This document shows, in pieces, positions 22,222-43,115 of a stretch of 64,000 nt of DNA (the first letter of the stretch is position 1; each line of letters starts with the position of its first letter). The translations under genes and the position numbers were made by a program. Origin of the DNA: an uncultured Terriglobales bacterium (lineage in GTDB: Bacteria; Acidobacteriota; Terriglobia; Terriglobales; Acidobacteriaceae); contig CAZONJ010000005.1 in NCBI GenBank assembly GCA_964581225.1, positions 3,394 through 67,393 on the forward strand, in the 5' to 3' direction. The notes under the pieces are model-generated. The model was not told the DNA's origin. It worked only from the letters and a program-made list of their open reading frames with translations, and did no database searches.

Positions 22222-23718
22222 ATGAGCGTACTGAAAACCCTTCTTCTTAATCCTCCGTCTTTCGAAAATTTCGATGGTGGAGCGAGTTCCCGTTGGCCGG
22301 CAACCCGTGAGATCGAGTCGTATTGGTATCCCGTATGGCTGGCTTATCCCGCAGGCCTGCTGGAAGGTTCACGCCTTCTCGATGCGCCTCCGCACCACGT
22401 TTCGGCCGAAGAGACCATCCAGATCTGCAAGGATTATGAGTTTCTCGTGCTTTTTACCAGCACTCCCGGCTGGACCGGCGACCAAAGGCTGGCGGAAGCG
22501 ATAAAAAAGGCGAATCCCGGCATCAAGATCGCCTTTGTCGGGCCACCCGTGACCACCTCGCCGGACAAGGCCCTGAACGAGTGCTCTGCCCTCGATTTCA
22601 TATGCCGGCGCGAGTTCGACTATTCGATCGTCGAGTTTGCCCAAGGCAAGCCGCTCGACCAGATTCTGGGCATCTCGTACCTGAACAACGGGAAGGTGGT
22701 CCACAATCCGGACCGCCCGCAGATCCAGGACCTCGATGCATTGCCTGACGTGACCGATATCTACGCTCGCGATCTGGATGTGACCCGCTACAACGTGCCT
22801 TTCCTGCTGCATCCGTATGTGGCCTTATATTCCACGCGCGGCTGTCCGGCGCAGTGCACCTTCTGTCTGTGGCCGCAAACTCTCAGCGGACATGCATGGC
22901 GCAAGCGTTCCACCGATGCGGTTGCCCGGGAGATGGCGAAGGCGAAGCAGCTCTTCCCTCATGTGAAGGAATTTTTCTTCGATGACGATACCTTCAACAT
23001 TCAGAAGGCGCGCACCATCGAGCTCTGCTCCAAGCTGAAGCCACTGAACCTTACTTGGTCATGCACCTCGCGTGTCACCACCGATTACGAGACGCTCAAA
23101 GCCATGCGCGAGGCGGGATGCCGCCTGCTGATCGTGGGCTATGAGTCGGGCGATCCGCAGATCCTGAAAAATATTAAGAAGGGCGCGACCGTCGAGCGGG
23201 CGCGCGACTTTACCCGCGACTGCCATAAGTTAGGGCTTACCATCCACGCCGACTTCATCCTCGGCTTGCCGGGCGAGACCCGCGAGAGCATTCGCCGTAC
23301 CATCGACTTTGCCAAGGCGCTGGATTGCGAGACCATCCAGGTTTCCGTCGCCCATGCGTATCCCGGCACGGAGTTTCACGACTTCGCGAAGCAGAACGGC
23401 TTTATCGTGAATGAGCAGTCGATGGTGGACGATGGCGGCCATCAGATGGCCCACATCGAATACCCCGGATTAGACCGCGAATATGTGATGGAGATGGTCC
23501 ATCGCTTCTATGACGAATACTATTTCCGTCCAAAGGCGGTTTACCGCATCGTGAAGAAGGCGTTCTTCGACAGCGGAGAGCGCAAGCGGCTCTATAAAGA
23601 AGCCAAATCCTTCCTGAAGCTGCGCGCGGCGCGAAATCGCTATGTGAAGCAAAGCCGCAAATCGCAGGTCGGGTCTGTCGAAAGCCAGGCAAAGGCGGTT
23701 GCCGCACAAGGGGATTAG
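22222..23718 (+). CDS. hpnJ: Hopanoid-biosynthesis-associated B12-binding radical SAM protein HpnJ
   Basis: The N-terminus LLNPPSFENFDGGASSRWPATREIESYWYPVWLAYPAGLLEGSRLLDAPP matches my recollection of the HpnJ family signature. The radical SAM cluster is GCPAQCTFCLWP. The gene is adjacent to the hopanoid operon. Confidence 0.75.
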   Translation: MSVLKTLLLNPPSFENFDGGASSRWPATREIESYWYPVWLAYPAGLLEGSRLLDAPPHHVSAEETIQICKDYEFLVLFTSTPGWTGDQRLAEAIKKANPGIKIAFVGPPVTTSPDKALNECSALDFICRREFDYSIVEFAQGKPLDQILGISYLNNGKVVHNPDRPQIQDLDALPDVTDIYARDLDVTRYNVPFLLHPYVALYSTRGCPAQCTFCLWPQTLSGHAWRKRSTDAVAREMAKAKQLFPHVKEFFFDDDTFNIQKARTIELCSKLKPLNLTWSCTSRVTTDYETLKAMREAGCRLLIVGYESGDPQILKNIKKGATVERARDFTRDCHKLGLTIHADFILGLPGETRESIRRTIDFAKALDCETIQVSVAHAYPGTEFHDFAKQNGFIVNEQSMVDDGGHQMAHIEYPGLDREYVMEMVHRFYDEYYFRPKAVYRIVKKAFFDSGERKRLYKEAKSFLKLRAARNRYVKQSRKSQVGSVESQAKAVAAQGD

Positions 23719-23813
23719 TTCAATTCCTTCCTGAGATGGGCATGGCCATAACGCTGTGCCCATTTATTTTGTTCCAGATGAGCCATTCCCCCAAATCTCG
23801 CGGCATCCACAGC

Positions 23814-24233
23814 ATGACGCTGATGCGCTATCTCCTGCTGCTCCTTCTGGTTCTATGCAGCACTTTGGGGGACGTATTTCTTTCGCGCGGCATGAAGCAG
23901 ATTGGAAGGATCAGCCCCACACGCTGGCATGACCTCCTGTTTGCGGTCACAAACCCCTGGGTCATGGTGGGCATTCTTCTCCTGCTGGTCTTTTTTTCTT
24001 CCTATCTTTCGTCGCTCTCGTGGGCGGACCTTTCCTACATCATGCCGGCAACCTCCTTCGGCAATGTGTTTACCGCGTTGCTCGCGAAGTTTTATCTGCA
24101 TGAAAACATCCCGGTTGCGCGCTGGCTCGGGATTCTGCTTATCACCTTTGGGGTTGGATTCGTGGCGCGAGGCCCTTCGCTCACTGTCCGGCCCGCGCCA
24201 GAGGCGGCGCTGCCGGAGAAGAGTAATCCATGA
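23814..24233 (+). CDS. Half-size (4-TM) DMT/EamA-like membrane protein, first of a pair
   Basis: Single EamA-like domain with four hydrophobic helices. The internal ATG at 23814 (MTLMRYLLLLLLV) is preferred over the track start at 23736. Confidence 0.6.
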   Translation: MTLMRYLLLLLLVLCSTLGDVFLSRGMKQIGRISPTRWHDLLFAVTNPWVMVGILLLLVFFSSYLSSLSWADLSYIMPATSFGNVFTALLAKFYLHENIPVARWLGILLITFGVGFVARGPSLTVRPAPEAALPEKSNP

Positions 24234-24625
24234 GCCTGCAACATCAACTCGCCGACGCCAGCTTTATCGTTCTTCTGGTGGCGTTCAATACCTCGGGAGA
24301 CCTGCTTATGGCCAGGACCATGCGCAAGGTTGGGGACGTGGACGTCATTCGCAAACAGCGTGGGATTGTTGGAGTGGTCCGCGCGATCCTGACCACTCCG
24401 TCTTTCTATGGCGCGCTGGCCTGCATGGCTGCGGCATTCTTCAGCCTTTTGACCGCGCTTTCGCTTATCGATTTGAGCCTGGTGATCCCCGCTGCCGCCT
24501 CTTTGACGTTTCTATCCAACCTGACCGGAGCAAAATTCTTCCTCAAAGAACGCGTGGACCGGACACGCTGGATCGCCGGATTGGTGGTCATGTGCGGAGT
24601 GGTGCTTTTGGCAGTTAAGAAGTGA
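24230..24625 (+). CDS. Half-size (4-TM) DMT/EamA-like membrane protein, second of a pair
   Basis: 131 aa, four hydrophobic helices, and an ATGA start/stop overlap with the preceding half-size DMT gene. Confidence 0.6.
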   Translation: MSLQHQLADASFIVLLVAFNTSGDLLMARTMRKVGDVDVIRKQRGIVGVVRAILTTPSFYGALACMAAAFFSLLTALSLIDLSLVIPAAASLTFLSNLTGAKFFLKERVDRTRWIAGLVVMCGVVLLAVKK

Positions 24626-24914: not shown

Positions 24915-26366
24915 TCACTTCGGGAACAATTTCATGATGCCGGTTGCGGGCAAATCGGGCTTGAGAAATTTCCCTGGCTTTCCGGATGCCTGGGCGATCG
25001 CCTCCGCCGCTTTATAACCGCTGCGGACCGCGCCCTCCATGGTCGCCGGCCATCCGGTCGCCGTCCAGTCCCCGGCCAGAAACACGCGAGGCCATTCCGT
25101 TTGCGATGCAGGACGATACTGGTCTGACATTGGTTGAACGGAATATGTGGCATGGACTTCCTTGATTACTGTCGCCTTCAACAGCGTTGATTCCCGTACC
25201 TTGGGAAAGAACTCTGCCAGCTCTTTGATCGCCAGATCGATAATCTCCTGCCGCGATTTATCCACCAGTGACTTTGAGGCGCTTACCACCAGCTCCACAT
25301 AACTGCCGGACTCACCTGCCGCTCCTGCGCGCTCTCCTCTATTCTGCAACTTCGACTTATGGAACATCCACTGAATGGTCCGGTCCAAAAGCACAGCATG
25401 TTCCAGGTCAGTGATCTCCCGGTCGAACCACAGATGGATGCCGGTAATCGGCGAGCTCTCAAATTGTTGCAGCATACTCCCAAGGCGCTGCTGGACCGCT
25501 GCCGAACCGTTCTGGGCAGGCAGCATCTTGGCCAGCACATGATAAGGGACTGCGAGCAGCAAATAATCGGAGCGGAGCTCCTGCGCGCCCGCATGAAGAT
25601 TGATTCCGGAAGAATCGGCTGAAAATGAATCTACCGCCGTCCGCAGGCGGACTTCCCCGCCGCGCTGCTGGATGTAGTCGATTGCCTGCCGATAAAGCTC
25701 GGTGAGCGGCACCATGGGCACGCCCATCTTCCCTGCCGCAGCGGATTTCAGGAACGACTCGCGGAAAACCTGCGCGGCATAGCGCACCGAGGTGCGGTCC
25801 AGATCTTCATTCAGGGCGCTCACCAGCACGACCTTCCAGAAGCGTTCGATCGCAGCCGGGGTCTGCTTATGACGATGCAGCCACGCCTCGAAATTTTCTT
25901 CCGTATCTTCCGGCAGCCCTGCCATCAGCGCCAGCATGGCCCGTGAGATTGCCAGTTTATCTTTCAAGCTCAGCGACGCGGCTTTCAGGAACGACCAACT
26001 GGTATGCAATGGAGCGGGCAGGAGCGATGGGCCAATCTTTGATCGCCTTCCCCCGGGCTCGATAAAGGTAAGCGTATCGAACCAGCGGATCTTTTCTTCG
26101 GAGCCGATGCGATGGTAAAAGTCCAGCAAATTGGTGCAGCATCCCAGCAGGACATGCTGGCAGTTGTCCACCACTTCGCCGGTCCCCGGATGCTCATAGG
26201 AAGAGGCGCGACCGCCAATGTAGGGGCGGCGCTCAAAGAGCGTAACGCGAAATCCGCTGTCCGCCAGGACGCATGCGGCGGAAAGACCGGCCAATCCACC
26301 GCCGGCTACGGCGACTGATGGCGCATTGGAATAAGATTCTTCTGGCACGGAAGCGAAATCCATCAA
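24915..26366 (-). CDS. hpnE: Hydroxysqualene dehydroxylase HpnE (FAD-dependent amine-oxidase fold)
   Basis: VAVAGGGLAGLSAACVLA FAD fold, about 480 aa, immediately after hpnC-hpnD. The track start is TTG at 26366; the ATG one codon in (26363) overlaps the hpnD stop as TGATG. Confidence 0.8.
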   Translation of the reverse strand: MMDFASVPEESYSNAPSVAVAGGGLAGLSAACVLADSGFRVTLFERRPYIGGRASSYEHPGTGEVVDNCQHVLLGCCTNLLDFYHRIGSEEKIRWFDTLTFIEPGGRRSKIGPSLLPAPLHTSWSFLKAASLSLKDKLAISRAMLALMAGLPEDTEENFEAWLHRHKQTPAAIERFWKVVLVSALNEDLDRTSVRYAAQVFRESFLKSAAAGKMGVPMVPLTELYRQAIDYIQQRGGEVRLRTAVDSFSADSSGINLHAGAQELRSDYLLLAVPYHVLAKMLPAQNGSAAVQQRLGSMLQQFESSPITGIHLWFDREITDLEHAVLLDRTIQWMFHKSKLQNRGERAGAAGESGSYVELVVSASKSLVDKSRQEIIDLAIKELAEFFPKVRESTLLKATVIKEVHATYSVQPMSDQYRPASQTEWPRVFLAGDWTATGWPATMEGAVRSGYKAAEAIAQASGKPGKFLKPDLPATGIMKLFPK

Positions 26367-27301
26367 GCAAAAATAGACTGGAAAAGGCCCTTTGATAATA
26401 TCGCCGATTTTTCCAGGGCGCTGAGGCGGACCCGGCTGGTGAGGACATCATAGTGACGCTTGCCAATCTTCTCCAGCAAGCGGCGATAAATTGTAACCAT
26501 CACCCAAAAGGCAGGACGACTGTCTTTATCGATTAAAGGGGCCAGCTCATCGGCCGCCCGATAGAATTCGCGCGCGCGCTGCGCCTCAAATTCCAGCAGC
26601 GGCCGTAGGCGCAAAGGCTCCAGCGAGCTTCCGCCGTTGGCGACAAACTCTTCCGGAGTCATGCCGAAGCGCAGAATATCTTCCTCCGGTAAATAGACGC
26701 GCCCCATCTGCGCATCTTCTTTCACATCACGAATGATGTTGGTAAGTTGAAAGGCAATGCCGCAGCGTTCCGCAAGCGCCTCCGCGCGGGGATCGCTATA
26801 TCCGTAGACGCGAATACAAACCAGTCCCACAACCGAGGCCACGTAGTAGCAATAGTTATAGAGGTCTTTAAAAGTGCGGTATGGCGCAACCGTTTCCACG
26901 GCCGCTCCACCACCGGGCCGGGAGGCGGGACTTTGCTGCGGCTGCTGCGGAATTTTCAGGTCCATGGTCGTTCCTGCCACCAGCTTATGCAGGAGCTCGC
27001 CGGGAATTTCAAAACGGCGCTGGGCGTCGGCCAAAGCAAAAAAGACCGGATCGTTGGTCGGTCTTCCGGCAGTCACCGCATTCCATTCAGAGAGCCAGGT
27101 TTGAAGTGCGGCGCGGCGTTCGGGGACGGTCCGCGAGGCGTCGTCGGAAAGATCGTCCGCATGCCTCATAAATGCATAGACAGCGCAGAGCGCATTGCGC
27201 TTCTCTCGCGGCAGCGGGAGAAAGCCATAGTAAAAGTTCTTGGCCTGGGAGCGCGCGATCCCCCGGCAAACCGCATAGGCCGTAGCGAGCTGGGTGTTCA
27301 T
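26363..27301 (-). CDS. hpnD: Presqualene diphosphate synthase HpnD (squalene/phytoene synthase family)
   Basis: Asp-rich motifs YAFMRHADDLSDD and NIIRDVKEDAQMGRVYLP. ATGA overlap with the hpnC stop. Confidence 0.8.
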   Translation of the reverse strand: MNTQLATAYAVCRGIARSQAKNFYYGFLPLPREKRNALCAVYAFMRHADDLSDDASRTVPERRAALQTWLSEWNAVTAGRPTNDPVFFALADAQRRFEIPGELLHKLVAGTTMDLKIPQQPQQSPASRPGGGAAVETVAPYRTFKDLYNYCYYVASVVGLVCIRVYGYSDPRAEALAERCGIAFQLTNIIRDVKEDAQMGRVYLPEEDILRFGMTPEEFVANGGSSLEPLRLRPLLEFEAQRAREFYRAADELAPLIDKDSRPAFWVMVTIYRRLLEKIGKRHYDVLTSRVRLSALEKSAILSKGLFQSIFA

Positions 27302-28251
27302 GCCAGTTTTCCCAACAGCGCGCGCGCCACCAGCGAGAGCTTGCGGAATTTGGAAATTACCGGCCGCGAGCGGAGCACATCAAAATCCCGGCGCTCGATG
27401 GCCCGCAGGATCTCCTGGCCTCCGCGGGTGAACAATTCAATGTCCAGCGCCAGCTCCTTATCTACTTTTTCCACCAGCGGCAGTCCGCGTTCGAACCATT
27501 CGCGCGCGCGCGCGACCTCGAAGCGCATCATCTCCAGGAATTGAGGAGTCGTTTGGCGGGAGGCAATCTCCTGCTCGGAGACCCCGAAACGCCTGAGGTC
27601 CTCCAGCGGCAGATACACGCGGCCCTTTCCATAATCGACAGAAACGTCCTGCCAAAAATTCGCCAGTTGCAGGGCGGTGCAGGTGAAATCCGAGAGCCGC
27701 TGCCGTTCTTCATCCCGATATCCGCAAAGATACAGCACCAGATGCCCCACAGGGTTTGCCGAATTCACGCAATAGCCAAGCAGGTCCTCAAACGTTTCGT
27801 AGCGCGCGACGGTCTGGTCCTGCCGGAAGGCTTGCAGCAGATTAGCGAAAGGGGCTTTTGGGACTAGGCATTGCCGGATGGTTTCGGCGAGCGCAACAAA
27901 TACCGGATGCCGCGCCTGTCCGGCGTAGCAGGCATCGAGTTCGCCCTGCCATTCATCGAGCAACTGCAATGAAAGCTGAGGATCGCCGGTTTCGTCTCCC
28001 AGATCGTCGGAGATGCGGCAATAGGCATAGACGCTATAGAAGTGAGGCCGCAAACGTTTGGGCAGAAACCAGGTTGCAACCGAGAAATTTTCATAATGCG
28101 AGTGGGCAAGGCGCGCGCAATAAGCGTGGGCCTGGGCCAGAGTCGGGGCCTGCTCCGGAATGCGGTATTCGGCTGGCAGCAGGTCCCAGCCAGAACGCAC
28201 TCGGCCCACGGGATTGCTGTTGGTGAGCTGCTCCTGACTGGCGAGATGCAA
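27298..28251 (-). CDS. hpnC: Hydroxysqualene synthase HpnC (squalene synthase family)
   Basis: HYENFSVATWFLPKRLRPHFYSVYAYCRISDDLGDE and NFWQDVSVDYGKGRVYLP, typical of HpnC. Confidence 0.8.
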   Translation of the reverse strand: MHLASQEQLTNSNPVGRVRSGWDLLPAEYRIPEQAPTLAQAHAYCARLAHSHYENFSVATWFLPKRLRPHFYSVYAYCRISDDLGDETGDPQLSLQLLDEWQGELDACYAGQARHPVFVALAETIRQCLVPKAPFANLLQAFRQDQTVARYETFEDLLGYCVNSANPVGHLVLYLCGYRDEERQRLSDFTCTALQLANFWQDVSVDYGKGRVYLPLEDLRRFGVSEQEIASRQTTPQFLEMMRFEVARAREWFERGLPLVEKVDKELALDIELFTRGGQEILRAIERRDFDVLRSRPVISKFRKLSLVARALLGKLA

Positions 28252-28268: not shown

Positions 28269-29342
28269 CTAGTGTCCCGGGATAATTGCGGTCTTGATCT
28301 CGCCGGTGCGGTCGAGCATGCGACGCAATACCTGCTGCAGACGAGAGAGCGGGGCTTCGCCAGTGACATAATCTGTGCTCTTGATCTTCTTCTCGCAGAT
28401 CAGGGCAAATGCCCGGCGGACCATGTCCGGAGTGTGATGGAAGGTCGCCTTCAGCGTGATCTCGGAATAGTGCAGGCGGTTGGTGTCAAGCTCGACCTTG
28501 GTTCCGCTGGCGCAGCCGCCGAAGAAGTTCACGGTGCCGCCTTTGCGCACCATGTCTACCGCCCACTGCCATGCCTCCGGACGTCCCACCGCCTCAATCA
28601 CTGCATCGGCGCCCCGGCCGCCGGTGAGCGAATATACCGCATCGATTGGATTCGCGACCTTCGTGGTCTGCACAATCGCGCCAGCGCCAAACTTGCGGGC
28701 CGCATCGACCTGCTCATCCCGCTTGACCACGGCGATCACATTCATGCCGCTTACTTTGGCGACCTGCATGAACATCAACCCAATCGGGCCACCGCCGATC
28801 ACTACCACGCTGTCGCCAATCTCGGCGCCGGTTTCGTGCAATCCCCGCAGCACGCACGCCAGCGGCTCGGTAATGGCGGCAGCTTCAAAACTCACGCCGG
28901 AAGGGATGGCCAGCATATTGGCTTCTACGATGCGGCGTGGCACTTTGATGTACTCCGCATACGCTCCGTTATTGAAGAGCAGGTCCTCGCAGAGGTTTTC
29001 CTGGTGTTTCGAGCAATAAAAGCAGGCCCCGCAAGGCGCGGAGTTCAGCGCGACCACCCGCATACCTTTTTTAAAGCTCCTTACCCCAGCTCCGACCTCT
29101 TCGATAATTCCGGAAAGCTCATGGCCGAACAACGCCGGCGGAGTAATCATGCGGGCATGGTAGCCACGCTGAAAGACCTTGAGATCGGTGCCGCAGGTGA
29201 GCGCGACCTCGACTTTGATCAGGACCTCGCCATCTTCGACGCGAGGAATCGGCACCCTCTCGATTTTTACGTCCTGCTTGCCATAGAGGACCGCTGCTGT
29301 CATTTTTCCGTTCACGAAAGTTTTACCTGCTCCGTTCTTCAC
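28269..29342 (-). CDS. Zinc-dependent medium-chain dehydrogenase/reductase, polyol (sorbitol/threonine) dehydrogenase type
   Basis: CGTDLK and FGHELSGIIEEVG (catalytic Zn), CGACFYCSKHQENLC (structural Zn) and VIGGGPIGLMF (Rossmann fold). GTG track start; the internal MTAAVLYG (29303) is a plausible true start. Confidence 0.8.
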   Translation of the reverse strand: MKNGAGKTFVNGKMTAAVLYGKQDVKIERVPIPRVEDGEVLIKVEVALTCGTDLKVFQRGYHARMITPPALFGHELSGIIEEVGAGVRSFKKGMRVVALNSAPCGACFYCSKHQENLCEDLLFNNGAYAEYIKVPRRIVEANMLAIPSGVSFEAAAITEPLACVLRGLHETGAEIGDSVVVIGGGPIGLMFMQVAKVSGMNVIAVVKRDEQVDAARKFGAGAIVQTTKVANPIDAVYSLTGGRGADAVIEAVGRPEAWQWAVDMVRKGGTVNFFGGCASGTKVELDTNRLHYSEITLKATFHHTPDMVRRAFALICEKKIKSTDYVTGEAPLSRLQQVLRRMLDRTGEIKTAIIPGH

Positions 29343-29349
29343 TACGTTT

Positions 29350-30453
29350 TCATATACCGGGCTGAATGACGATCTTCATCGAATCCGGCTTCGGATTTGC
29401 CGCCAGTTGGAGTCCTTCCACGCCGCTCCGCAGCGGGAAGCGGTGAGAAATCAGCCCTGCCAGATCGACCTCGCCGCTGAACACCAACCGGACGGTCTCA
29501 TCCTGCAAATCGACCGAGGCGCTATAGGAGCCGAGCAGCGTCTTTTCGTCTACGCAAACCGCCGCAGGATCGATCACCGCTTCGCTGCGCACCGTCTGGG
29601 CAAACAGCATCACCCTGCCGCCGTAGCGTGCCGCATCGATTGCAGACTGTATCAGGCTGTTGGCGCCAACCGCCAGAATGACCGCGTCCGCTCCACGCCC
29701 TTCGGTCAGGCTCCGGATGCGCTCCACCACGTTCTCCTGCGCGGCAGCAATTGTCTCCTGGATACCGTAGCTATTAGCTATTGTAAGCCTCTGCTGATGT
29801 AAATCGGAAGCTACTACTCTGGCTCCGGCGCGCTGCGCCAGCACCGCCAGAATAATGCCGATCGGCCCCTGGCCGATTACCAGCACCGTCTCACCCGGAC
29901 GCAGATTCAGCGCCTCAATCCCCTTCAGGCAGGTATTGACCGGCTCTACAAAAGCAGCCTGCTCGAAAGAGACCTCATCGGGGATTTTGACCACCCCACG
30001 ATTCACAATCCAATCCATTACCCTCACGTACTCCGCAAAACCGCCGCCTGAGGGCTCAAAGCCGGCAGTACAACCTACCTTCTTGTACACCGGACATTGC
30101 GCAAAGACCTTATGCCGGCAGTAGTAGCAACTCCCACAGGGAATATGATGAAAGACCATTACCCGGTCGCCCACCATAAAGTTGGAGACCCCAGCGCCTA
30201 CTCCGGCCACCGTGCCCGAAGTCTCATGACCAAATATGCGCGGCGCGGAGTGCGAGCCAGTGCTGATCTTCTTTAGATCGGTCCCGCAAACGCCGCAGGT
30301 GTGTACCTTGATCAGGATCTCGCCCGCGCCAATCTCGGGTACGGGTACGGTTTCGATGCGAACATCGTTGATGCCGCGATACACCGCTGCCCGCATCGTG
30401 GAAGGCACTACAGTATCGAGCGATGGGGACATTGAGGTCGCTGAAGAGGCCAT
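29350..30453 (-). CDS. Zinc-dependent medium-chain dehydrogenase/reductase, polyol dehydrogenase type (paralog of 28269-29342)
   Basis: CGVCGTDLKK and FGHETSGTVAGVG, CGSCYYCRHKVFAQC and VIGQGPIGIIL. The internal MRAAVYRG (30396) is a plausible alternative start. Confidence 0.8.
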   Translation of the reverse strand: MASSATSMSPSLDTVVPSTMRAAVYRGINDVRIETVPVPEIGAGEILIKVHTCGVCGTDLKKISTGSHSAPRIFGHETSGTVAGVGAGVSNFMVGDRVMVFHHIPCGSCYYCRHKVFAQCPVYKKVGCTAGFEPSGGGFAEYVRVMDWIVNRGVVKIPDEVSFEQAAFVEPVNTCLKGIEALNLRPGETVLVIGQGPIGIILAVLAQRAGARVVASDLHQQRLTIANSYGIQETIAAAQENVVERIRSLTEGRGADAVILAVGANSLIQSAIDAARYGGRVMLFAQTVRSEAVIDPAAVCVDEKTLLGSYSASVDLQDETVRLVFSGEVDLAGLISHRFPLRSGVEGLQLAANPKPDSMKIVIQPGI

Positions 30454-30457
30454 TCTG

Positions 30458-31195
30458 TTACTCTGATTTTACCTTGAATTGCGGGACTTCTACGAGCTTT
30501 GCCATCCGCCCAAATTCACCCCTGGAGATGTACTCCTTTAGTTTTCCATTCAAAGCTTTAGCCGCAATGGCGCTGTTTTTTGCCAGAAGACGAATGGCAG
30601 GCCATTGCCCAGGATGGAAGGCAAGATGAGCCAGAAACTTCAGGTAGTTAAATTTTCCATTTTCGGCAATAAAGCCGCTCAAATCCGGCAGCGTGACATC
30701 GGCCTCGTCGGAGATGGCCTTTAACGCTAAAAACGGAATGCCTGCTCTCTCGGCGCTTGCCGCAACCGCAACCGCCTCCATATCGATGATCTGCGCGTTA
30801 TAGCTTTGGCGCAGCGCTGCCTTCCGCTTTGCGCCGGCAATGCCGCCGATGGAAACCAACACACCTGCGCCGGAGATGGCCCTGTATGCCCGTCCCGTCT
30901 CCTCCGAAAGAACCGTTGCAGGAAGCACTACGTCTCCAACATGCAATGAGGGATCGAGCGCGCCGGCAAATCCAACCGACGCCAGCAAATTGGGCTGGAT
31001 GACCTGAATGAGCGCCTCTGCCGCCGCGGCCGCCGCTTTCTGTCCAATTCCCGCACAGATTACGAAAACATTATCTTGCGAGTAACAACGGAAGCGGGTG
31101 CCGGGCAATCCTTGTACTGAGCTGAAGGTGGAAAGCAGTTCCTGGATCTCGCGCTCCAGGGCGGCAATGATTCCGATTTTGTAAGGCTGCGCCAT
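30458..31195 (-). CDS. hpnG: Hopanoid-associated nucleosidase/phosphorylase HpnG (PNP/UDP family)
   Basis: MAQPYKIGIIAALEREI opening, PNP_UDP_1-like fold, and a position between hpnA and the rest of the hpn genes. The ATG at 31195 lies 2 nt after the hpnA stop. Confidence 0.75.
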   Translation of the reverse strand: MAQPYKIGIIAALEREIQELLSTFSSVQGLPGTRFRCYSQDNVFVICAGIGQKAAAAAAEALIQVIQPNLLASVGFAGALDPSLHVGDVVLPATVLSEETGRAYRAISGAGVLVSIGGIAGAKRKAALRQSYNAQIIDMEAVAVAASAERAGIPFLALKAISDEADVTLPDLSGFIAENGKFNYLKFLAHLAFHPGQWPAIRLLAKNSAIAAKALNGKLKEYISRGEFGRMAKLVEVPQFKVKSE

Positions 31196-31197
31196 CT

Positions 31198-32217
31198 CTA
31201 ACGCGCCACCATGCCGTGGGCTTCCCTGCCGGTCACATATCCATGGGATTGAAACCACTCCACTGCGCGCCGCAATGCGGCTTCCACGGGCACGATCCGG
31301 TATCCTAATTCACGTTCCGCTTTTTCTGAAGATGCGAACATCTTCTTTTTTCCCATACGCACCGCTTCAATCGTCGCGCGCGGCTCTTTTCGCAAAACCA
31401 CTCCGGTAAAAAATTGGTCGAACGCCGCAAATCCCATAGCAACGCTGTGCGGCACCTGAATGGTGGGAGACGGTAGGCCGGTGATAGCGGAGAGTCTGTC
31501 TAAAAGCTGCTTCAGCGTAAGGTTCTCTCCGCCCAGGATATAGCGTTCCCCGGGACGGGCCTTCTCAAAGGCGAGAATGTGTCCGCGCGCCACCTGGTGC
31601 ACATCCGCCAGATTCAATCCAGTGTCCACATAGGCGGGAAACTTGCGCTTGAGAAAGTCCAGGATGATCCGCCCGGTGGGAGTCGGCTTGATGTCCTGCT
31701 CACCGATTGGAGTGGTGGGATTCACCATCACGACGGGCGCGCCGTTGCGTCCCGCTTCCAGCGCCACCTCTTCGGCCATAAATTTGGAGCGCTTGTAATG
31801 GCCGATCATCTGCTCCAGAGAGACCGGGTCCGCTTCCTTTACCGATCTTCCATCGCCAATAAATCCCATGGTCGCAACACTGCTGGTATAGACCACCCGT
31901 CGGACCTTTGCCTCTGCCGCCGCCCGGATGATGGCGCGCGTGCCCTCGACATTGGCGCGGTACATCTCCTCCGGATTGCGCGTCCACAAACGGTAATCGG
32001 CGGCAACATGAAAGACGGCATCGCAGCCCTGCATTCCTTTGCGTAACGATTCAGGATCGCGAAGGTCGCCAATCACACGATCTCCGCGTAGCCTGGCGAT
32101 GTTTTCCAGGCGGCTCTCCCGGCGCACCAGCAGGCGCAACTCCGCGCCTTGCGCAGAAAGGGCCTGCGCCACATGGCTGCCAACAAAGCCCGTCGCTCCA
32201 GTTACAAATGCTCTCAT
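31198..32217 (-). CDS. hpnA: Hopanoid-associated NAD-dependent sugar epimerase/dehydratase-family protein HpnA
   Basis: MRAFVTGATGFVGSHV (GxxGxxG) and the YKRSK catalytic YxxxK. The start was chosen at 32217 rather than the track's 32268. Confidence 0.75.
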   Translation of the reverse strand: MRAFVTGATGFVGSHVAQALSAQGAELRLLVRRESRLENIARLRGDRVIGDLRDPESLRKGMQGCDAVFHVAADYRLWTRNPEEMYRANVEGTRAIIRAAAEAKVRRVVYTSSVATMGFIGDGRSVKEADPVSLEQMIGHYKRSKFMAEEVALEAGRNGAPVVMVNPTTPIGEQDIKPTPTGRIILDFLKRKFPAYVDTGLNLADVHQVARGHILAFEKARPGERYILGGENLTLKQLLDRLSAITGLPSPTIQVPHSVAMGFAAFDQFFTGVVLRKEPRATIEAVRMGKKKMFASSEKAERELGYRIVPVEAALRRAVEWFQSHGYVTGREAHGMVAR

Positions 32218-32324
32218 CGGAGGTTCCCAGTTTGATTTTCGAGCAGATGAATCGCAAAACGCACACAAAAAGTAAGAGGCACGACCAAAATCGTGCCTTC
32301 GATTACCGCCTCGGAAGCAAATTC

Positions 32325-32768
32325 TTACTCGAGCGCCTCGGGAGCCAGCCCGATATTTTGCTCCCCTGCGGCCCTCTTCTCCCAGTATTTTTTAATCCAG
32401 GCCTCCCAACTCCGGCCGGCGGCGGTATCGCGTCCGGTGAAGGCCAGAGCGGCGATTTCAGAGTATGGGACCGAGACCTTTTCGCTGGAATCCTTCGGGA
32501 AAACCCGGACGGTCGATTCAGCCAGCGTCCTGCCTTTGCGCCGGTCGAAGATATAGCCTTCGATCTTGCTCCCATTTTTCCGGGTGATGGTCACATCTCC
32601 GCGATAGTCGAATGCCCTTTCCAGCGCCTCGTATACCTCTGTCTCGCTGGCCAGCTCCGGGATCCATCCTTCCAGCTTGTCGTGCTGCGTTCCAGGCGCG
32701 ACTTCCAGCGCGTCCGGATTTGCCGTCTTTGGCTGGTGCTCTGAAGATTGCGCTGAGGTGGAACTCAT
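32325..32768 (-). CDS. Hypothetical protein (147 aa) inside the hopanoid operon
   Basis: ATGA overlap with the hpnH stop and coding-like codon usage. It has a disordered N-terminus followed by a compact domain ([26 protein letters not shown]...). No motif recognised. Confidence 0.6.
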
Positions 32769-33892
32769 GCCCGGGTCTCCTCAAGCTGGGACGAAGCTGC
32801 ATCGATCTGGACCAGCGGATTGTAAGCGTGCATCGGCCGCACTGTCTCGTTAAGAAGCTTCTCGGCTTCCTCGTCTTTGTATTTGGTAAACAGCACCGCG
32901 CGGGCAGTGGCAAGAAGTCCGCGGACGGAGCTGAAGGTTTGATTCACGGCCGAGGCCTCATAACCGCTGTGCACCATGCAATTGGCGCATTGCGGGTTGC
33001 CGGACTCGGTGCCGTAGCGCTCCCATTCCGTGGCCTCTATCAATTCCTGGAAGCTTTCCGCATAGCCGTCCTGCAGCAGATAGCATGGCTTTTGCCAGCC
33101 AAAGACGTTGTAGGTCGGCATGCCCCAGGGCGTGCAGGAGAAATCCCGCTTGCCCATCAGGAACTCAAGAAAGAGCGGCGAGGCGTTAAAGCGCCAGTTG
33201 GCCTTGCGGTTGGAGAGGATGGCGCGAAAGAGCCGACGCGTGCGCGCCCGGCCAAGGAAATGCTTCTGGTCCGGCGCTTTATCGTAAGAGTATCCGGGAG
33301 AGAGCATCATGCTCTCTACGCCCAACTCCATCATCTCATCGAAGAAGCCGCGCACGCTCTTGGGGTCGGCGCCATCGAACAGCGTGGTGTTGGTTGTGAC
33401 CCGGAAGCCGCGCCGCAGTGCCTCTTTAATTCCTTCCACCGCCGCCTCGTAGCCGCCTTCCCGGCAGACGGAGAAATCGTGGTGCTCGCGCTGGCCGTCC
33501 AAATGGACAGAGAACGAAAGATATTTACTCGGCTTGAAAAGGTCGAGCTTTTCTTTGAGCAGCAGCGCATTGGTGCACATGTAAACGTACTTCTTGCGCG
33601 CCACCAGTCCGGCAACAATCTCATGAATGCGCGGGTGCAGCAAAGGCTCGCCCCCGGGAATCGAAACGAACGGGACGCCGCATTCCTCCACCGCGCGGAA
33701 GCATTCCTCCGGCGAGAGGTCCCTCTTTAAGATGTGCGCCGGATACTGGATTTTTCCGCAGCCCGCGCAGGCAAGATTGCAGCGGAAAAGCGGCTCGAGC
33801 ATCAGGACCATGGGATAGCGCTTCTTCCCTGCCAGCTTCTGCTTCAGGACGTAGGTTGTTACCGTCAACATCTGAGAAATTGGTACTGCCAC
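32765..33892 (-). CDS. hpnH: Adenosylhopane synthase HpnH (radical SAM)
   Basis: [26 protein letters not shown] is the HpnH signature. GTG start preceded by AGGAGGAG. Confidence 0.9.
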
Positions 33893-33907: not shown

Positions 33908-35896
33908 CTACTGCTCGTTCCGCGCCTGCATGGCCTTTTGATAAGTGGAAAGCGCCAACAGCGGAAAAAAGTTTCTGTAAAGATGATAGGCGAGATAGAA
34001 GACCCGCGGAAAGCCCGTGCCGGTATATTGCGGCTCGTCCCACGATCCATCGCGCCTTTGCGTGCGCAACAAATAAATTATGCCCTTGGCCACGGAATCG
34101 CTGCGCAGGTCTCCGGCGGCCAGCAATCCAAGAATGCCCCAGGCCGTCTGCGAAGGCGTGCTGGGACCGATTCCCTTGGTATTGGGATCGTCATAGGAGC
34201 CGCAGGTCTCTCCCCAGCCGCCATCGGAGTTCTGGATCGACCTCAGCCACTCCGCCGCCTGCTGGACATACGGTTCATGGTTCCATACCCCGACCGCCTC
34301 CAGGCCGCGCAGCACCTGCATCGTCCCGTAGATGTAGTTCACGCCCCAACGGCCAAACCAGGAGCCGTCCGGCTCTTGTTCGCGGGCGATGAACTCGATG
34401 GCCTTTTTTACCCGCTTGTCGCGCTGGTCATAGCCGTACGTCGCCAGCATCTCGATCACGCGCGCGGTAATGTCCACCGTGGCGGGATCCAGCATGGCAT
34501 TGTGATCGGCGAATGGAATGTGCTGAAAGACCATCTTGTCGTTATCTTTATCGAACGACGCCCAGCCGCCATTCTTGCACTGCATGGCAAAGATCCACTT
34601 GATTGCCCGCTGTGCTACCTCGTGCTGATAACGCTCGCGCGGGTTGGCCACCTTGGAGAGCGCCAGCAGCACCATCGCCGAATCGTCCACATCGGGATAG
34701 AACTCGTTGTTGAATTCGAAGTACCAGCCGCCCGGCTCGGTGTTCTTCACCTTTACCGCCCAGTCCCCTTTGTGGCGTACTTCCTTTGACAGGATCCAAT
34801 CGGCGGCCTTCAACATGCGGGGATCGTTTTTCGAGACCCCCGACTCGCCCAGCGCGAACATGGCATACGCCGTGTCCCACACCGGAGACATGCAGGGCTG
34901 CATACGGAAGGTGGCGTCGGAGTGGCCCTCCGCTCCGTCCTCTTCGATGCCGAGCTTTTCGAACTCATCCACTGCGCGGATGAATTGCGGGTCGTCGGCG
35001 GAGTATCCGAGGCAGCGCAGCGCGATGATGGAATTCATGATGCCGGGATAAATTGCCCCCAGGCCGTCGCTTTTTTCAAAGCGCTCGAGCATCCACTTCT
35101 CCGCTTTTTTCAATGCGATGGAGCGCAGTGGGCGCACGTGCACGCGTTCAAAGTAGTGGGCGATATTGTTGAGGACCAGGAAGAAATTACGCCAGCTGAA
35201 CTTTTCCTTCGACCATCGCAAGTAAAGATTGCAGTTCTCCCGCCCTCCCGGGAAAAGTTCTCCGATACTCATCTCCGCCGGGACCTTCTTAAACGGCTTC
35301 TTCGCGTAAGCGATCGAAAGCGGCACCAGAATGGCGCGCGACCACGACGAAATCTCGTAAAGATTGAACCAGAACCAGTTCGGGAACAGCACAATCTCCG
35401 GTGGGATTGCAGGTACGGCGTTGTAATCGTATTGACCGAAGAAGCAGAGATATAGCTTGGTGAAGGTATTAACTTCGGTAGCGCCGCCCAGCGCAAGAAT
35501 GCATTGGCGCGCTTCTTGCAGCACGGGATGCTCGGCGGTGAATCCGGCCAGCTTTAGTCCGAAATAAGCCTTCACCGAGGCGCTTATGTTGGAGGGACCG
35601 CCCTGGTAGATGGGCCATCCTCCATCCTCATTCTGGTGGCGGAGAATTTCCCGGGCCGCTGCCTGGATGCGCTCGGGATTGCTTGTCCCTAAAAGGGCGT
35701 GCAGAAGAATGTAATCCGACTCCAGCGTGGTGTCGGCTTCGAGCTCGCCACACCAGTAGCCGTCCTCATGCTGGGCGGAAAAAAGGTAGCGGCGGGCAGC
35801 GTCCATGGTGGCCGCAACCCGGCTTACAATATCATCGATCTTCCCGCGCACGAGTTGGGCCGGGCGTTCCGATGTTGTAGGGGAGAAATCTTCCAT
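33908..35896 (-). CDS. shc: Squalene-hopene cyclase
   Basis: DVDDSAMVLLAL (DxDD catalytic motif) and multiple QW-type repeats (DGGWG, DGSWF). The start at MEDFSP (35896) lies 1 nt after the ispH stop; the track's longer N-terminus overlaps ispH. Confidence 0.9.
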   Translation of the reverse strand: MEDFSPTTSERPAQLVRGKIDDIVSRVAATMDAARRYLFSAQHEDGYWCGELEADTTLESDYILLHALLGTSNPERIQAAAREILRHQNEDGGWPIYQGGPSNISASVKAYFGLKLAGFTAEHPVLQEARQCILALGGATEVNTFTKLYLCFFGQYDYNAVPAIPPEIVLFPNWFWFNLYEISSWSRAILVPLSIAYAKKPFKKVPAEMSIGELFPGGRENCNLYLRWSKEKFSWRNFFLVLNNIAHYFERVHVRPLRSIALKKAEKWMLERFEKSDGLGAIYPGIMNSIIALRCLGYSADDPQFIRAVDEFEKLGIEEDGAEGHSDATFRMQPCMSPVWDTAYAMFALGESGVSKNDPRMLKAADWILSKEVRHKGDWAVKVKNTEPGGWYFEFNNEFYPDVDDSAMVLLALSKVANPRERYQHEVAQRAIKWIFAMQCKNGGWASFDKDNDKMVFQHIPFADHNAMLDPATVDITARVIEMLATYGYDQRDKRVKKAIEFIAREQEPDGSWFGRWGVNYIYGTMQVLRGLEAVGVWNHEPYVQQAAEWLRSIQNSDGGWGETCGSYDDPNTKGIGPSTPSQTAWGILGLLAAGDLRSDSVAKGIIYLLRTQRRDGSWDEPQYTGTGFPRVFYLAYHLYRNFFPLLALSTYQKAMQARNEQ

Positions 35897-35897
35897 A

Positions 35898-36902
35898 TCA
35901 TTCAGCAGCAACAGCAACCTGACCGGATCGAGGGGCAGCCTGGATGGCCTGCACAATCTCCGCCGGAAGCCCAAAGCGCACGTTCTCCGGCATTACCTCA
36001 ACCTCCTGGACATTGGTAAACCCTTCCTTCGCCAAAAACTCTACGACCTGCTGCACCAGGATCTCAGGAGCGGAAGCCCCTGCCGTGAGCGCGACCGTCT
36101 TTACCCCGGCCAGCCACTCCGGCTTGATCGATTTACAGGTTTCGATGAGATACGAAGGCGTATTCAGATTCACCGCCACTTCCACCAGCCGGTTGGAGTT
36201 GGAGCTATTGACCGAGCCTACGACCAGCAACAGATCGGGATCGTAATCCTGCTTGATCACCACATTCTTCACTGCAACCTGCCGGTTCTCGGTGGCGTAG
36301 CAGATGTCCTGGGCATGAGGCCCTTGAATATTGGGGAACTTCCGCTTCAGCGCCTGGATAATGTCATGCGCCTCGTCCAGGCTCAAAGTAGTTTGCGTGA
36401 GATACGCGACACGATTGGGGTCCGGCACCGTCAGCGTCTCTACCTCTTGCGGACTGCCCACCACCTGGGTCACGTTGGGGGCCTCTCCTAATGTCCCGAT
36501 GATCTCGTCGTGGTCGCGATGCCCGACCAGGATCAGCGAGTATCCCTTTTTGGCAAAGTTGATCGCCTCTACGTGGACCTTGGTGACCAGCGGGCAGGTG
36601 GCATCGATCACGCGCAGCTTGCGCGACTGGCTGGCCTCGCGCACCTCGGGAGAAACTCCGTGGGCGCTGTAGATTACCCGGGCGCCGGCGGGAACTTCGT
36701 CTACGCTGTCCACAAAAATCGCGCCTTTGGCCGCCAGCTCATCCACCACATAGCGGTTATGCACGATCTCTTTGCGCACATAAATGGGCGCGCCAAAGGT
36801 TTCGAGCGCAATACGCACAATATCGATCGCGCGCACCACCCCGGCGCAGAACCCCCGGGGCTTCAGAAGGAGTAGAGTTTTAGGTTCAGTTGTCACGTTC
36901 AT
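35898..36902 (-). CDS. ispH: 4-hydroxy-3-methylbut-2-enyl diphosphate reductase (IspH/LytB)
   Basis: Three cluster cysteines in PRGFCAGV, ATCPLVTKVH and DICYATENRQ, plus the SSNSNRL motif. Confidence 0.9.
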   Translation of the reverse strand: MNVTTEPKTLLLLKPRGFCAGVVRAIDIVRIALETFGAPIYVRKEIVHNRYVVDELAAKGAIFVDSVDEVPAGARVIYSAHGVSPEVREASQSRKLRVIDATCPLVTKVHVEAINFAKKGYSLILVGHRDHDEIIGTLGEAPNVTQVVGSPQEVETLTVPDPNRVAYLTQTTLSLDEAHDIIQALKRKFPNIQGPHAQDICYATENRQVAVKNVVIKQDYDPDLLLVVGSVNSSNSNRLVEVAVNLNTPSYLIETCKSIKPEWLAGVKTVALTAGASAPEILVQQVVEFLAKEGFTNVQEVEVMPENVRFGLPAEIVQAIQAAPRSGQVAVAAE

Positions 36903-38816: not shown

Positions 38817-39599
38817 ATGAGGGCACATCTTCTTTTCATGGAGAAAATGGTTTGTTACCTTACAATCAAGATGATGACACCTTTGGCATTTTTAGGAACC
38901 TACGCCGTGGGCGAAATTGGAAACCTCATCGCCCAAACTGGACCGGTGGCAAAAACTGTTTTGATCATCCTGTTGATTTTCAGCCTCTTCTCCTGGTCCA
39001 TAATCTTTTCCAAGTGGTCGAGCATGCGGCGGGCGCGGACGCAGAGCGGTCGCTTCCTGCGCGCCTTTCGCAAGGCCATGCGCCTGCAGGACGTCTCCGC
39101 AGTCTCCGAGCAGTTCAAGCCCAGCCCGCTGGCGACGGTCTTTGAGCATGGTTATGAGGAATACCGCCGCCAGACGAGCGGCGCAGGCGTCCCGCGCAAC
39201 CTGATGGCAATCCAGCGCGCCACCCAGATCGCCTCGTCGGAAGAGCTTACCCGCATGGAGCAGCGGCTGCCATGGCTGGCGACCACCGGCGCCGTCACCC
39301 CGTTTGTCGGCCTCTTTGGAACGGTATGGGGCATCATCGACGCCTTCCAGGGACTCGGCAATGCGGGAGCGGCCACCCTGCGCGCGGTCGCGCCCGGAAT
39401 CTCTGAGGCGCTGATTACCACCGCAGCCGGCCTCTTTGTCGCTATCCCGGCGGTGATTGCCTATAACCAGTTCTCGCACCAACTGCGTGAATTTGGCGCG
39501 CGCATGGACGATTTCAGCCTTGAGTTCCTAAATGTAGTTGAAAACAGCAGCGCAGCCGCTCCGGTTACAGGCCGCGCCACCCAGCGCGTTCTCGACTGA
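38817..39599 (+). CDS. tolQ: Tol-Pal system protein TolQ (MotA/TolQ/ExbB proton channel)
   Basis: Three TM helices and the ATTGAVTPFVGLFGTVWGI motif; first gene of the tol cluster. The true start is probably near MMTPLAF (about 38871). Confidence 0.85.
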   Translation: MRAHLLFMEKMVCYLTIKMMTPLAFLGTYAVGEIGNLIAQTGPVAKTVLIILLIFSLFSWSIIFSKWSSMRRARTQSGRFLRAFRKAMRLQDVSAVSEQFKPSPLATVFEHGYEEYRRQTSGAGVPRNLMAIQRATQIASSEELTRMEQRLPWLATTGAVTPFVGLFGTVWGIIDAFQGLGNAGAATLRAVAPGISEALITTAAGLFVAIPAVIAYNQFSHQLREFGARMDDFSLEFLNVVENSSAAAPVTGRATQRVLD

Positions 39600-39608
39600 G
39601 GAGAGATT

Positions 39609-40809: not shown

Positions 40810-40853
40810 CTGTAGATTTTTTATGTAATCCAATACTCGGAAAGGCCGTTGTA

Positions 40854-42212: not shown

Positions 42213-42299
42213 AACTTTCTAGTAACGCTCATTTTCTGTTTGTGAGTACCGGAACGCGCTTCCTGTTATAAACTTCACTTTTATTTTTCTTTTTCCGCA

Positions 42300-42315: not shown

Positions 42316-42335
42316 ATATTATTGGAGGAACAGAG

Positions 42336-43079: not shown

Positions 43080-43115
43080 CCAAGGTTGTTTCCAGTGCAT
43101 ATTGCATTTCAACCG

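Follow-up and report, generated by a model that had tools for sequence, protein, structure and literature searches.

A conserved pair of zinc-dependent dehydrogenases in the hopanoid operon of Acidobacteriota and its possible part in side-chain redox

In Acidobacteriota, two adjacent genes for zinc-dependent MDR oxidoreductases, here called ADH1 and ADH2, are a fixed component of the hopanoid operon. We analysed the pair in a 64,000-nt stretch of DNA from an uncultured Terriglobales bacterium (the window) and compared it with loci within and beyond the phylum. Several features are new in this analysis: the genes form an ancient module in which ADH1 comes first; their products carry contrasting fingerprints that suggest a cofactor dichotomy, NAD(H) for ADH1 and mostly NADP(H) for ADH2; and the setting of the pair differs between Acidobacteriota, where hpnG and hpnC nearly always flank it, and the other lineages sampled, where it adjoins hpnC-hpnD(-hpnE) or stands alone. 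Among the functions considered, redox chemistry on the C35 side chain built by HpnH and HpnG is the one that we tentatively place first.

Operon membership and conservation

The operon in the window reads ispH-shc-hpnH-ug3-hpnA-hpnG-ADH1-ADH2-hpnC-hpnD-hpnE (Table 1), and the operon neighbours of ADH1 and ADH2 are all hpn or isp genes. As the initial annotation had described, the two reading frames are co-directional and tightly packed between hpnG and hpnC: 4 nt separate the stop of the hpnG-like gene from ADH1, 7 nt separate ADH1 from ADH2, and 17 nt, containing a GGAGG ribosome-binding site, separate ADH2 from the TTG start of hpnC. An alternative ATG start of ADH2 at 29303 (Met14) would widen the ADH1–ADH2 gap to 46 nt. 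A promoter and terminator scan of 24–38 kb yielded counts that were not above those of shuffled sequence; its sole notable feature was a hairpin with a T-run, located between ug3 and hpnA.

Table 1 Features of the hopanoid operon and of ADH1 and ADH2 (positions within the window)
Feature	Position	Strand	Description
ispH	35898..36902	-	
shc, squalene-hopene cyclase	33908..35974	-	TIGR01507, 767 bits
hpnH, adenosylhopane synthase	32765..33892	-	TIGR03470, 545 bits
ug3, 147 aa	32325..32768	-	no family matched; name from PMC5462960
hpnA (SDR)	31198..32268	-	TIGR03466, 493 bits
hpnG-like nucleosidase/phosphorylase	30458..31258	-	PNP_UDP_1; best match HpnG model TIGR03468, 104.7 bits versus 187.1 cutoff
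ADH1 (= ug1)	29350..30453	-	predicted Zn-dependent MDR oxidoreductase, 367 aa, ATG start, A family; ADH_N + ADH_zinc_N
ADH1 CGVCGTDLKK	30268..30297	-	catalytic-zinc Cys and Thr; Lys versus His of SDH/TDH
ADH1 FGHETSG	30214..30234	-	catalytic-zinc His-Glu
ADH1 structural-zinc four-Cys lobe	30094..30138	-	
ADH1 insert GCTAGFEPSGGG	30040..30075	-	A-family-specific, conserved; not in ADH2 (alignment)
ADH1 VVASDLH	29797..29817	-	invariant Asp217 at beta-2 end; NAD(H)-type fingerprint
ADH2 (= ug2)	28269..29342	-	predicted Zn-dependent MDR oxidoreductase, 357 aa, GTG start, B family; ADH_N + ADH_zinc_N
ADH2 TCGTDLKV	29175..29198	-	catalytic-zinc Cys
ADH2 FGHELSG	29109..29129	-	catalytic-zinc His-Glu
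ADH2 structural-zinc four-Cys lobe	28989..29033	-	
ADH2 IAVVKRD	28716..28736	-	lacks an acidic residue; Val206 and Lys207 never vary, Arg208 kept in ≥90% of orthologues; fingerprint of NADP(H) type
hpnC	27298..28251	-	TIGR03464, 355.8 bits versus 250 cutoff
hpnD	26363..27301	-	TIGR03465 as best NCBIfam match, 242 bits versus 278.6 cutoff
hpnE	24915..26366	-	TIGR03467, 500 bits
hpnJ	22222..23718	+	convergent with hpnE; TIGR03471, 776 bits

Comparison with 80 other Terriglobales-type species showed that ADH2 lies directly 3' of ADH1 (77/77 loci), hpnG directly upstream of the pair (69/73) and hpnC next downstream (73/74, and 9/9 in other Acidobacteriota), an arrangement far beyond chance. Identities across species were 70–77% for ADH1 (80 species), 74–82% for ADH2 and 69–79% for shc, with hpnG reaching only 34–44%; 45% of ADH2 positions were invariant across species, and purifying selection on both dehydrogenases matches that on shc and hpnH. 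The hpnA-hpnG-ADH1-ADH2-hpnC core is also present in a second acidobacterial lineage (50–58% identity). Where the Terriglobales operon is split, the pair remains with hpnCDE (L041 and L072) or with hpnG (L004). The flanking hpn genes and this synteny bear out the earlier assignment of both genes to the hopanoid operon.

The association of ADH genes with the hopanoid cluster is not new, having been published in 2017. ADH1 and ADH2 are the "ug1" and "ug2" of Sinninghe Damsté et al. 2017 (Front Microbiol 8:968, PMC5462960), listed there as "function not established": ug1 is a Zn-dependent ADH of ~370 aa after hpnA-hpnG, and ug2, in subdivision 1 Acidobacteria, a Zn-binding ADH of ~350 aa before hpnC-hpnD-hpnE. 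The genes in the window fit this description, one Zn-ADH lying directly after hpnG and the other directly before hpnC. In contrast to the present analysis, that study placed ug1 and ug2 in separate clusters (C and A) and made no mention of a paired module, a cofactor dichotomy or occurrence beyond Acidobacteria; for the formation of bacteriohopanetetrol (BHT) it proposed HpnA rather than ug1 or ug2.

Protein family, zinc sites and cofactor fingerprints

Both proteins have the domain order of the MDR superfamily, with a GroES-like ADH_N domain (PF08240; 91 and 89 bits for the two ADHs, above the cutoff) followed by a Rossmann ADH_zinc_N domain (PF00107; 79 and 94 bits, above the cutoff). In both, and in their orthologues, the Cys, His-Glu and Glu ligands of the catalytic zinc are conserved, as is the structural zinc site with its four Cys; the structural Cys are absent solely from the ADH1 orthologue of L086. 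All MDR hallmarks that had been read from the window were found again—FGHETSG and FGHELSG, the structural-zinc motifs CGSCYYCRHKVFAQC in ADH1 and CGACFYCSKHQENLC in ADH2, and the Rossmann motifs GQGPIG (ADH1) and GGGPIG (ADH2). On the basis of these motifs, ADH1 and ADH2 are predicted to be two catalytically intact Zn-dependent MDR oxidoreductases.

The description of the pair as polyol-dehydrogenase type came down to a distant resemblance. Neither ADH1 nor ADH2 reached any NCBIfam equivalog cutoff: the L-threonine 3-dehydrogenase model TIGR00692 gave 181 bits for ADH1 (its best NCBIfam match) and 169 bits for ADH2 (cutoff, 458), the further L-threonine 3-dehydrogenase model NF003808 gave 175 and 157 bits for the two ADHs (cutoff, 380) and the scyllo-inosose 3-dehydrogenase IolM (NF041097) gave 176 and 166 bits (cutoff, 450). 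The best PDB matches were sorbitol dehydrogenase (SDH; 1pl6, E values of 1e-35 and 6e-30 for the two ADHs), the NADP(H) ketose reductase of whitefly (1e3j) and TDH (2dfv/2dq4). These enzymes share the fold, domain order, catalytic Cys/His/Glu and four-Cys structural zinc with the ADHs, but identity is only ~30–35%, Lys stands where SDH and TDH have His after the zinc Cys, and ADH1 has an additional conserved TAGFEPxGGG loop. The F-R-Y segment in the C-terminal domain of ketose reductase, which we take to bind polyol, is not kept: at the aligned positions ADH1 has Y-S-A and ADH2 has F-H-H. Two labels were rejected: sorbitol/L-iditol 2-dehydrogenase (the JGI label of homologues), given that TDH and generic ADHs match at least as well as 1pl6, and TIGR03366 "HpnZ_proposed" (122 and 99 bits versus a cutoff of 328), a phosphonate catabolism model whose likeness in name to hpn is coincidental. 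Oxidation of a lactol to its lactone, the chemistry required to convert ribosylhopane to ribonylhopane, is carried out on sugars by archaeal MDR glucose dehydrogenases (Pfam Glu_dehyd_C); the ADHs match this family at 26 and 33.5 bits, below the cutoff of 34.9, making it a lead only.

The cofactor fingerprints differ at the end of beta-2. ADH1 orthologues carry an invariant Asp or Glu, and Asp217 of ADH1 aligns to the Ala of the NADP-dependent ketose reductase 1e3j (Ala-Arg at that site). At the same position ADH2 has V-K-R in the window and G-R-R in most other lineages. By fingerprint, ADH1 is probably NAD-type and ADH2 mostly NADP-type; the ADH2 orthologues of two distant lineages (L082 and L090) have an acidic, NAD-type residue, which would argue against a role of ADH2 as an NADPH reductase.

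The pair as an ordered module

ADH1 and ADH2 are 36% identical, their orthologues form reciprocally monophyletic groups, and the tree of the A family is congruent with that of the B family. The two genes were separated in none of >100 loci, and in several lineages the end of ADH1 and the start of ADH2 share 4 nt. The "paralogs" of the initial annotation are thus ancient and do not reflect a recent local duplication. Apparent ADH1–ADH2 fusion proteins (P0004 and P0279) and the 505-aa P0001 proved on inspection to be frameshift or assembly artefacts and so lend no support to a physical ADH1–ADH2 complex.

Beyond Acidobacteriota, the pair precedes hpnC-hpnD(-hpnE) in two lineages: L082, in which hpnC is directly downstream of ADH2, and an Armatimonadota MAG (GCA_028871815.1), in which an 89-aa ORF lies between them. 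No shc, hpnH or hpnG was found near the pair on the sampled loci of either. None of the sampled lineages outside Acidobacteriota had hpnG or hpnH beside the pair (hpnG upstream in 0/7 distant lineages), and four other lineages carried no hpn gene at all on the contigs with the pair, which span 7–45 kb. In several lineages the pair stands alone or next to housekeeping genes (QueF, low-specificity threonine aldolase and nucleoside catabolism genes), although hpn genes are the only neighbours that recur across lineages. A metagenome scan with P0129 retrieved the second acidobacterial lineage and no close relatives of L082; the acidobacterial lineage also dominated a profile search with distant ADH1 orthologues. 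In the loci sampled outside Acidobacteriota, the gene-neighbourhood check proposed in the initial annotation therefore upheld a link to hpnC-hpnD(-hpnE) in two lineages and none to hpnG or hpnH, so the position right after hpnG, which had been taken as a pointer to the reaction, does not indicate the step.

Possible functions of ADH1 and ADH2

Reduction of ribosylhopane to BHT was shown in 2015 to be enzymatic and NADPH-dependent in cell-free extracts (as cited in PMC12583986), and the literature of 2025–2026 still leaves the enzyme unassigned (PMC12583986, Nov 2025; PMC13459092, Aug 2026), as the initial annotation had stated in putting the pair forward for this step; the proposal consequently stays a live candidate. 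Ribonylhopane, which has no assigned enzyme, is reported from Nitrosomonas europaea and from mutants of Rhodopseudomonas palustris (PMC4263297). Our leading, still tentative, reading is that ADH1 and ADH2 act in redox on the C35 side chain, and we infer their substrates and reaction directions as follows. ADH2 (NADP(H)-type) would act on ribosylhopane in its open-chain form, reducing the C-35 aldehyde to a primary alcohol and so yielding BHT. ADH1 (NAD(H)-type) would oxidise the same 5-substituted ribose or polyol, perhaps from lactol to lactone (ribonylhopane) or at a secondary hydroxyl ahead of epimerisation or amination. Aldehyde-to-alcohol reduction is canonical chemistry for Zn-MDR enzymes, and the NADP-type fingerprint of ADH2 fits the NADPH dependence observed in extracts. 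The BHT step thus suits ADH2 best, as a plausible but unproven NADPH reductase. We know of no such ADH gene in the hpn clusters of genetically studied BHT producers. The pair cannot be a universal BHT enzyme, because Chloracidobacterium thermophilum produces BHT and BHT cyclitol ether with ug2 missing (PMC5462960), and it may rather be a lineage-specific solution. Operon membership and the vacancy of the step speak for the candidacy; the non-hopanoid contexts of the pair speak against it. Against a side-chain role stand the conservation of two enzymes where a single reduction requires one, the lack of hpnG/hpnH adjacency in the loci sampled beyond Acidobacteriota and the split operons, which keep the pair with hpnCDE twice and with hpnG once. 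A more elaborate version, which we consider unlikely, has a dual-cofactor module for 5-substituted 5-deoxyribose lactols: ADH2 (NADPH) would convert ribosylhopane to BHT and ADH1 (NAD+) would form ribonylhopane or a keto intermediate, both partitioning the HpnG product in Acidobacteria, with stand-alone copies elsewhere handling deoxyribose by-products of radical-SAM chemistry.

The solitary and housekeeping contexts suggest a different function, possible but doubtful, in which the pair would serve as a general module that takes some small soluble compound (a polyol, an aldose or a hydroxy-amino acid) through two redox steps; it would be co-transcribed with the hopanoid genes and leave hopanoids untouched. 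ADH1 would oxidise with NAD+ and ADH2 reduce with NADPH, for a net epimerisation or isomerisation; the opposite fingerprints suit such a scheme, the best family matches (Tdh, scyllo-inosose dehydrogenase, sorbitol dehydrogenase and ketose reductase) point to substrates of this kind, and neither sequence has an obvious membrane-binding segment. IolG/IolW (scyllo-inositol formation) and arabinitol dehydrogenase/xylulose reductase, each an NAD-oxidase with an NADPH-reductase acting sequentially on one polyol, work in a similar way, but they belong to other protein families (GFO/IDH/MocA and SDR), and a shared substrate of ADH1 and ADH2 is hypothetical. A soluble substrate is difficult to reconcile with the near-invariant placement of the pair in an otherwise pure hopanoid/isoprenoid operon in ~100 species of one phylum, with the recurrence of hpn genes alone as neighbours or with scores below every soluble-substrate equivalog cutoff.

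The adjacency to hpnC—in Terriglobales, other Acidobacteriota and L082, and across only the 89-aa ORF in the Armatimonadota MAG—would also be expected if the pair acted with HpnC, HpnD and HpnE at the squalene or isoprenoid-alcohol stage (farnesol/farnesal or hydroxysqualene) and not on the C35 side chain. The split operons of L041 and L072 and the two loci without nearby shc, hpnH or hpnG agree with this, yet we regard it as improbable. To our knowledge, most hpnCDE-bearing bacteria have no ADH1–ADH2-type pair. The three-enzyme HpnD/HpnC/HpnE route is described as biochemically complete, with no call for an NAD(P)-dependent dehydrogenase (Pan 2015, in the summary given by PMC7306690), and HpnE uses FADH2 (same summary), leaving no evident need for an MDR enzyme; in cultured subdivision-3 strains, hpnCDE is dispersed and ug1 stays with hpnA-hpnG (PMC5462960). 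Least probable of all, in our view, is an obligate heteromer with a single reaction, or an NAD/NADP substrate cycle shuttling reducing equivalents (such as NADPH for the isoprenoid and radical-SAM steps of the operon). Genes never found apart, the 4-nt overlaps, the congruent trees and the opposite fingerprints are all consistent with it, but the catalytic site is complete in each subunit and neither one resembles a purely structural partner, and the fusions P0004 and P0279 that might have favoured it are artefactual.

Bacteriohopanepolyols, major lipids of bacterial membranes, give rise to geohopane biomarkers, and the BHT-forming enzyme has been missing since the extract activity of 2015. 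The ancient module and its contexts away from hpnG correct an over-simple reading of operon position, and its occurrence with hpnC-hpnD or alone outside Acidobacteria calls for caution in labelling all homologues "BHT reductase". For at least one large soil phylum, no available sequence candidate is more concrete than this operon-embedded, conserved and probably NADP-type Zn reductase; if the assignment is true, ADH2 would be the long-missing BHT-forming enzyme.

Conservation of the ADH pair in the hopanoid operon

The two ADH genes of the hopanoid operon have already been published: Sinninghe Damsté et al. (2017) described ug1 (Zn-dependent alcohol dehydrogenase of about 370 aa, after hpnA–hpnG) and ug2 (Zn-binding alcohol dehydrogenase of about 350 aa, before hpnC-D-E), corresponding to ADH1 and ADH2, and listed their function as not established (PMC5462960). 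We confirmed the initial annotation of both genes as co-directional and tightly packed between hpnG and hpnC; the gaps flanking and between them are 4, 7 and 17 nt, the 17-nt spacer holding a GGAGG site for hpnC. The medium-chain dehydrogenase/reductase (MDR) motifs quoted for both proteins were likewise found, together with the domains listed in the table.

A species-representative genome scan yielded at least 571 relatives, of which the best 80 (all Terriglobales-type MAGs, 70–77% identity) were examined, with synteny counted by tblastn using the window's proteins as queries. ADH2 directly followed ADH1 at 77 of 77 loci, hpnG lay directly upstream of the pair at 69 of 73, and hpnC was next downstream at 73 of 74. 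A second acidobacterial lineage (source names including Bryobacteraceae and Acidobacteriota; ADOP permease nearby) has the same core, ispH–shc(–hpnH)–hpnA–hpnG–ADH1–ADH2–hpnC(–hpnD), with a PNP_UDP_1 protein preceding ADH1, which is 50–58% identical to that of the window. In broken operons the pair remains with hpnCDE (L041 and L072) or hpnA–hpnG (L004), and no split pair was seen at any Acidobacteriota locus examined, broken operons included.

Features of the window, with identity of related Terriglobales proteins to the window protein
Feature	Position	Strand	Identity (%)	Remarks
MqnE	15770-16954	-		aminofutalosine synthase, 507 bits
hpnJ	22222-23718	+		776 bits; convergent to hpnE
hpnJ group	22222-24625	+		hpnJ, small EamA-like protein, 131-aa protein without family match
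hpnE	26366..24915	-		hopanoid operon member
hpnD	27301..26363	-	51–64	hopanoid operon member
hpnC	28251..27298	-		hopanoid operon member
ADH2	29342..28269	-	74–82	ADH_N + ADH_zinc_N
ADH1	30453..29350	-	70–77	ADH_N + ADH_zinc_N
hpnG-like	31258..30458	-	34–44	PNP_UDP_1
hpnA	32268..31198	-		hopanoid operon member
Hairpin	32277-32298	-		9 bp, GC-rich, then T-run; between ug3 and hpnA
ug3	32768..32325	-		147 aa, no family match (Pfam, NCBIfam); between hpnH and hpnA; ug3 of PMC5462960
hpnH	33892..32765	-	76–86	hopanoid operon member
shc	35974..33908	-	69–79	hopanoid operon member
ispH	36902..35898	-		hopanoid operon member
RecN	37090-38778			Pfam SMC_N
ORF group	38817-44132			MotA/TolQ-, TolB-, OmpA/Pal- and TPR/YbgF-like, by eye from translations; looks like a Tol-Pal-type cluster

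The hairpin might terminate or attenuate transcription inside the operon, dividing it into ispH–shc–hpnH–ug3 and hpnA...hpnE. Of the 80 related loci, about 20 have hpnH and ug3 together, as a unit separating shc from hpnA; most of the remainder have hpnA immediately after shc. The hpnJ group, present in 35 of 80, includes two small proteins that by size and type are probably ug5 (EamA-like) and ug4 (131 aa) of the 2017 paper; these bacteria have hpnJ without hpnK (PMC5462960). The acidobacterial HpnG-like proteins fall far under the HpnG model cutoff of 187 bits (window, 105; L109 9473-9949, 80; L111 9250-9990, 117), and their identity among Terriglobales is only 34–44%, versus 60–85% for every neighbouring gene; the window protein matches MTA/SAH nucleosidase (86 bits) nearly as strongly as HpnG. 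In some second-lineage metagenomic loci the shc position holds a squalene-hopene-cyclase-like gene that is short (598 aa) and highly divergent (L096 6476-8272; also L092, L095 and L102–L104; 179 bits against a cutoff of 431; 26–30% identical to the window shc), with the rest of the operon conserved. Elsewhere in the window, MqnE indicates the futalosine route to menaquinone.

Protein family and cofactor fingerprints

ADH1 and ADH2 (36% identical to each other) reached none of the curated NCBIfam equivalog cutoffs: the best matches to L-threonine 3-dehydrogenase (Tdh) were 181 and 169 bits against a cutoff of 458, and those to scyllo-inosose 3-dehydrogenase 176 and 166 bits against 450. The top solved structures, all within E 1e-30 to 1e-40, were whitefly NADP(H) ketose reductase, a Thermus ADH, a Sinorhizobium protein of unknown function, sorbitol dehydrogenase (SDH) and L-threonine 3-dehydrogenase (TDH). 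Across 70–80 species, both ADHs keep the catalytic Cys/His/Glu and four structural Cys. Both families have Lys after the zinc Cys, whereas SDH and TDH have His; the loop G-x-TAGFEPxGGG is private to ADH1, and the F-R-Y segment of the ketose reductase is replaced by Y-S-A in ADH1 and F-H-H in ADH2.

The end of beta-2 carries an invariant Asp217 in ADH1 (Asp or Glu in all lineages examined). In ADH2 it reads Val-Lys-Arg in Terriglobales, Gly-Arg-Arg in the majority of other lineages and an acidic residue in two distant orthologues (L082 and L090); these residues align with Ala-Arg of the NADP-dependent ketose reductase. By these fingerprints, the likely cofactor is NAD(H) for ADH1 and, in most cases, NADP(H) for ADH2. 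Three public gene calls of 505–586 aa (P0001, P0004 and P0279) apparently fuse or duplicate ADH1 and ADH2; on inspection they proved to be frameshift or assembly artefacts, not genuine fusions, and could mislead domain-architecture surveys.

An ancient ordered pair

In an exhaustive representative search the acidobacterial clade formed one 50%-identity cluster, below which came a few full-length groups at 39–49% identity and then a generic MDR continuum. The pairs all begin with an ADH1 orthologue (39–49% identical) and end with an ADH2 orthologue (37–52%), with cross-identities of only 27–34%; a neighbour-joining tree sets the two families apart at 93% bootstrap, with broadly congruent internal topologies. 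It follows that the duplication is ancient and that the conserved unit is the ordered pair.

Only hpn genes recur as neighbours. Locus L082 has ADH1–ADH2–hpnC–hpnD, and an Armatimonadota MAG (L088/L089) has a threonine-aldolase-like gene, ADH1–ADH2, an 89-aa ORF, hpnC–hpnD–hpnE and trpA, while shc, hpnH and hpnG are all absent within 10 kb. L083/L107/L114 have a WYL regulator, QueF, ADH1–ADH2 and then unrelated genes including a PUFA-synthase-like PKS; L086, L087 (marine) and L090 have the pair alone. In L114 (GCA_964628275.1, 11035-21038) QueF is directly upstream of the pair, which adjoins a small amine-oxidase-like gene and the very large polyketide synthase. A heterocystous cyanobacterium (L081, whose contig has the typical hetR and patX) carries a lone ADH1-family gene (5844-6902, 45% identical, without an ADH2 partner) that groups with the marine L087 ADH1 (100% bootstrap).

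Candidate functions

The initial annotation proposed the pair for reduction of ribosylhopane to bacteriohopanetetrol (BHT), a step it took to lack an assigned gene. This agrees with the literature searched, in which we found no assignment: a November 2025 paper (PMC12583986) still calls the enzyme "not yet established", HpnA had been suggested (PMC5462960), and a 2026 review shows the step as non-enzymatic (PMC13459092). Of the steps still lacking an assigned enzyme, the one that a Zn-MDR enzyme suits best is the reduction of the ribosylhopane aldehyde. ADH2 would carry out this reduction, its NADP-type fingerprint agreeing with an extract activity that depends on NADPH, and the NAD-type fingerprint of ADH1 suggests an oxidative partner reaction, for example lactol to the lactone ribonylhopane. 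MDR glucose dehydrogenases perform lactol oxidation of this type. Ribonylhopane itself is a reported hopanoid with no assigned enzyme (PMC4263297).

We hold this side-chain redox scheme only tentatively. Operon membership and the ADH2 fingerprint favour it, but Chloracidobacterium makes BHT without ug2 (PMC5462960), so the pair cannot be the universal BHT enzyme. The argument that a position after hpnG fits the pathway order is also weakened: outside Acidobacteriota, hpnC–hpnD(–E) do adjoin the pair, but hpnG or hpnH never did in the loci sampled. Four lineages have the pair without any hpn neighbour, which also counts against the scheme. An alternative of only slightly lower probability is a module that oxidises and then reduces a soluble polyol or aldose and is simply co-transcribed with hopanoid genes; against it stands the recurrence of hpn genes alone beside the pair. 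The hpnC–hpnD(–E) linkage bears on a squalene-stage role alongside HpnCDE, which we consider improbable. Finally, it counts against the scheme that one reduction needs one enzyme and two are conserved. An obligate heteromer or cofactor cycle seems quite unlikely.

With respect to the literature searched, the proposed link of the pair to BHT formation is a new one; it has partial support and can be tested. Whichever reaction is involved, operon membership and phylum-wide conservation make a role of the pair in hopanoid biosynthesis likely in Acidobacteriota.
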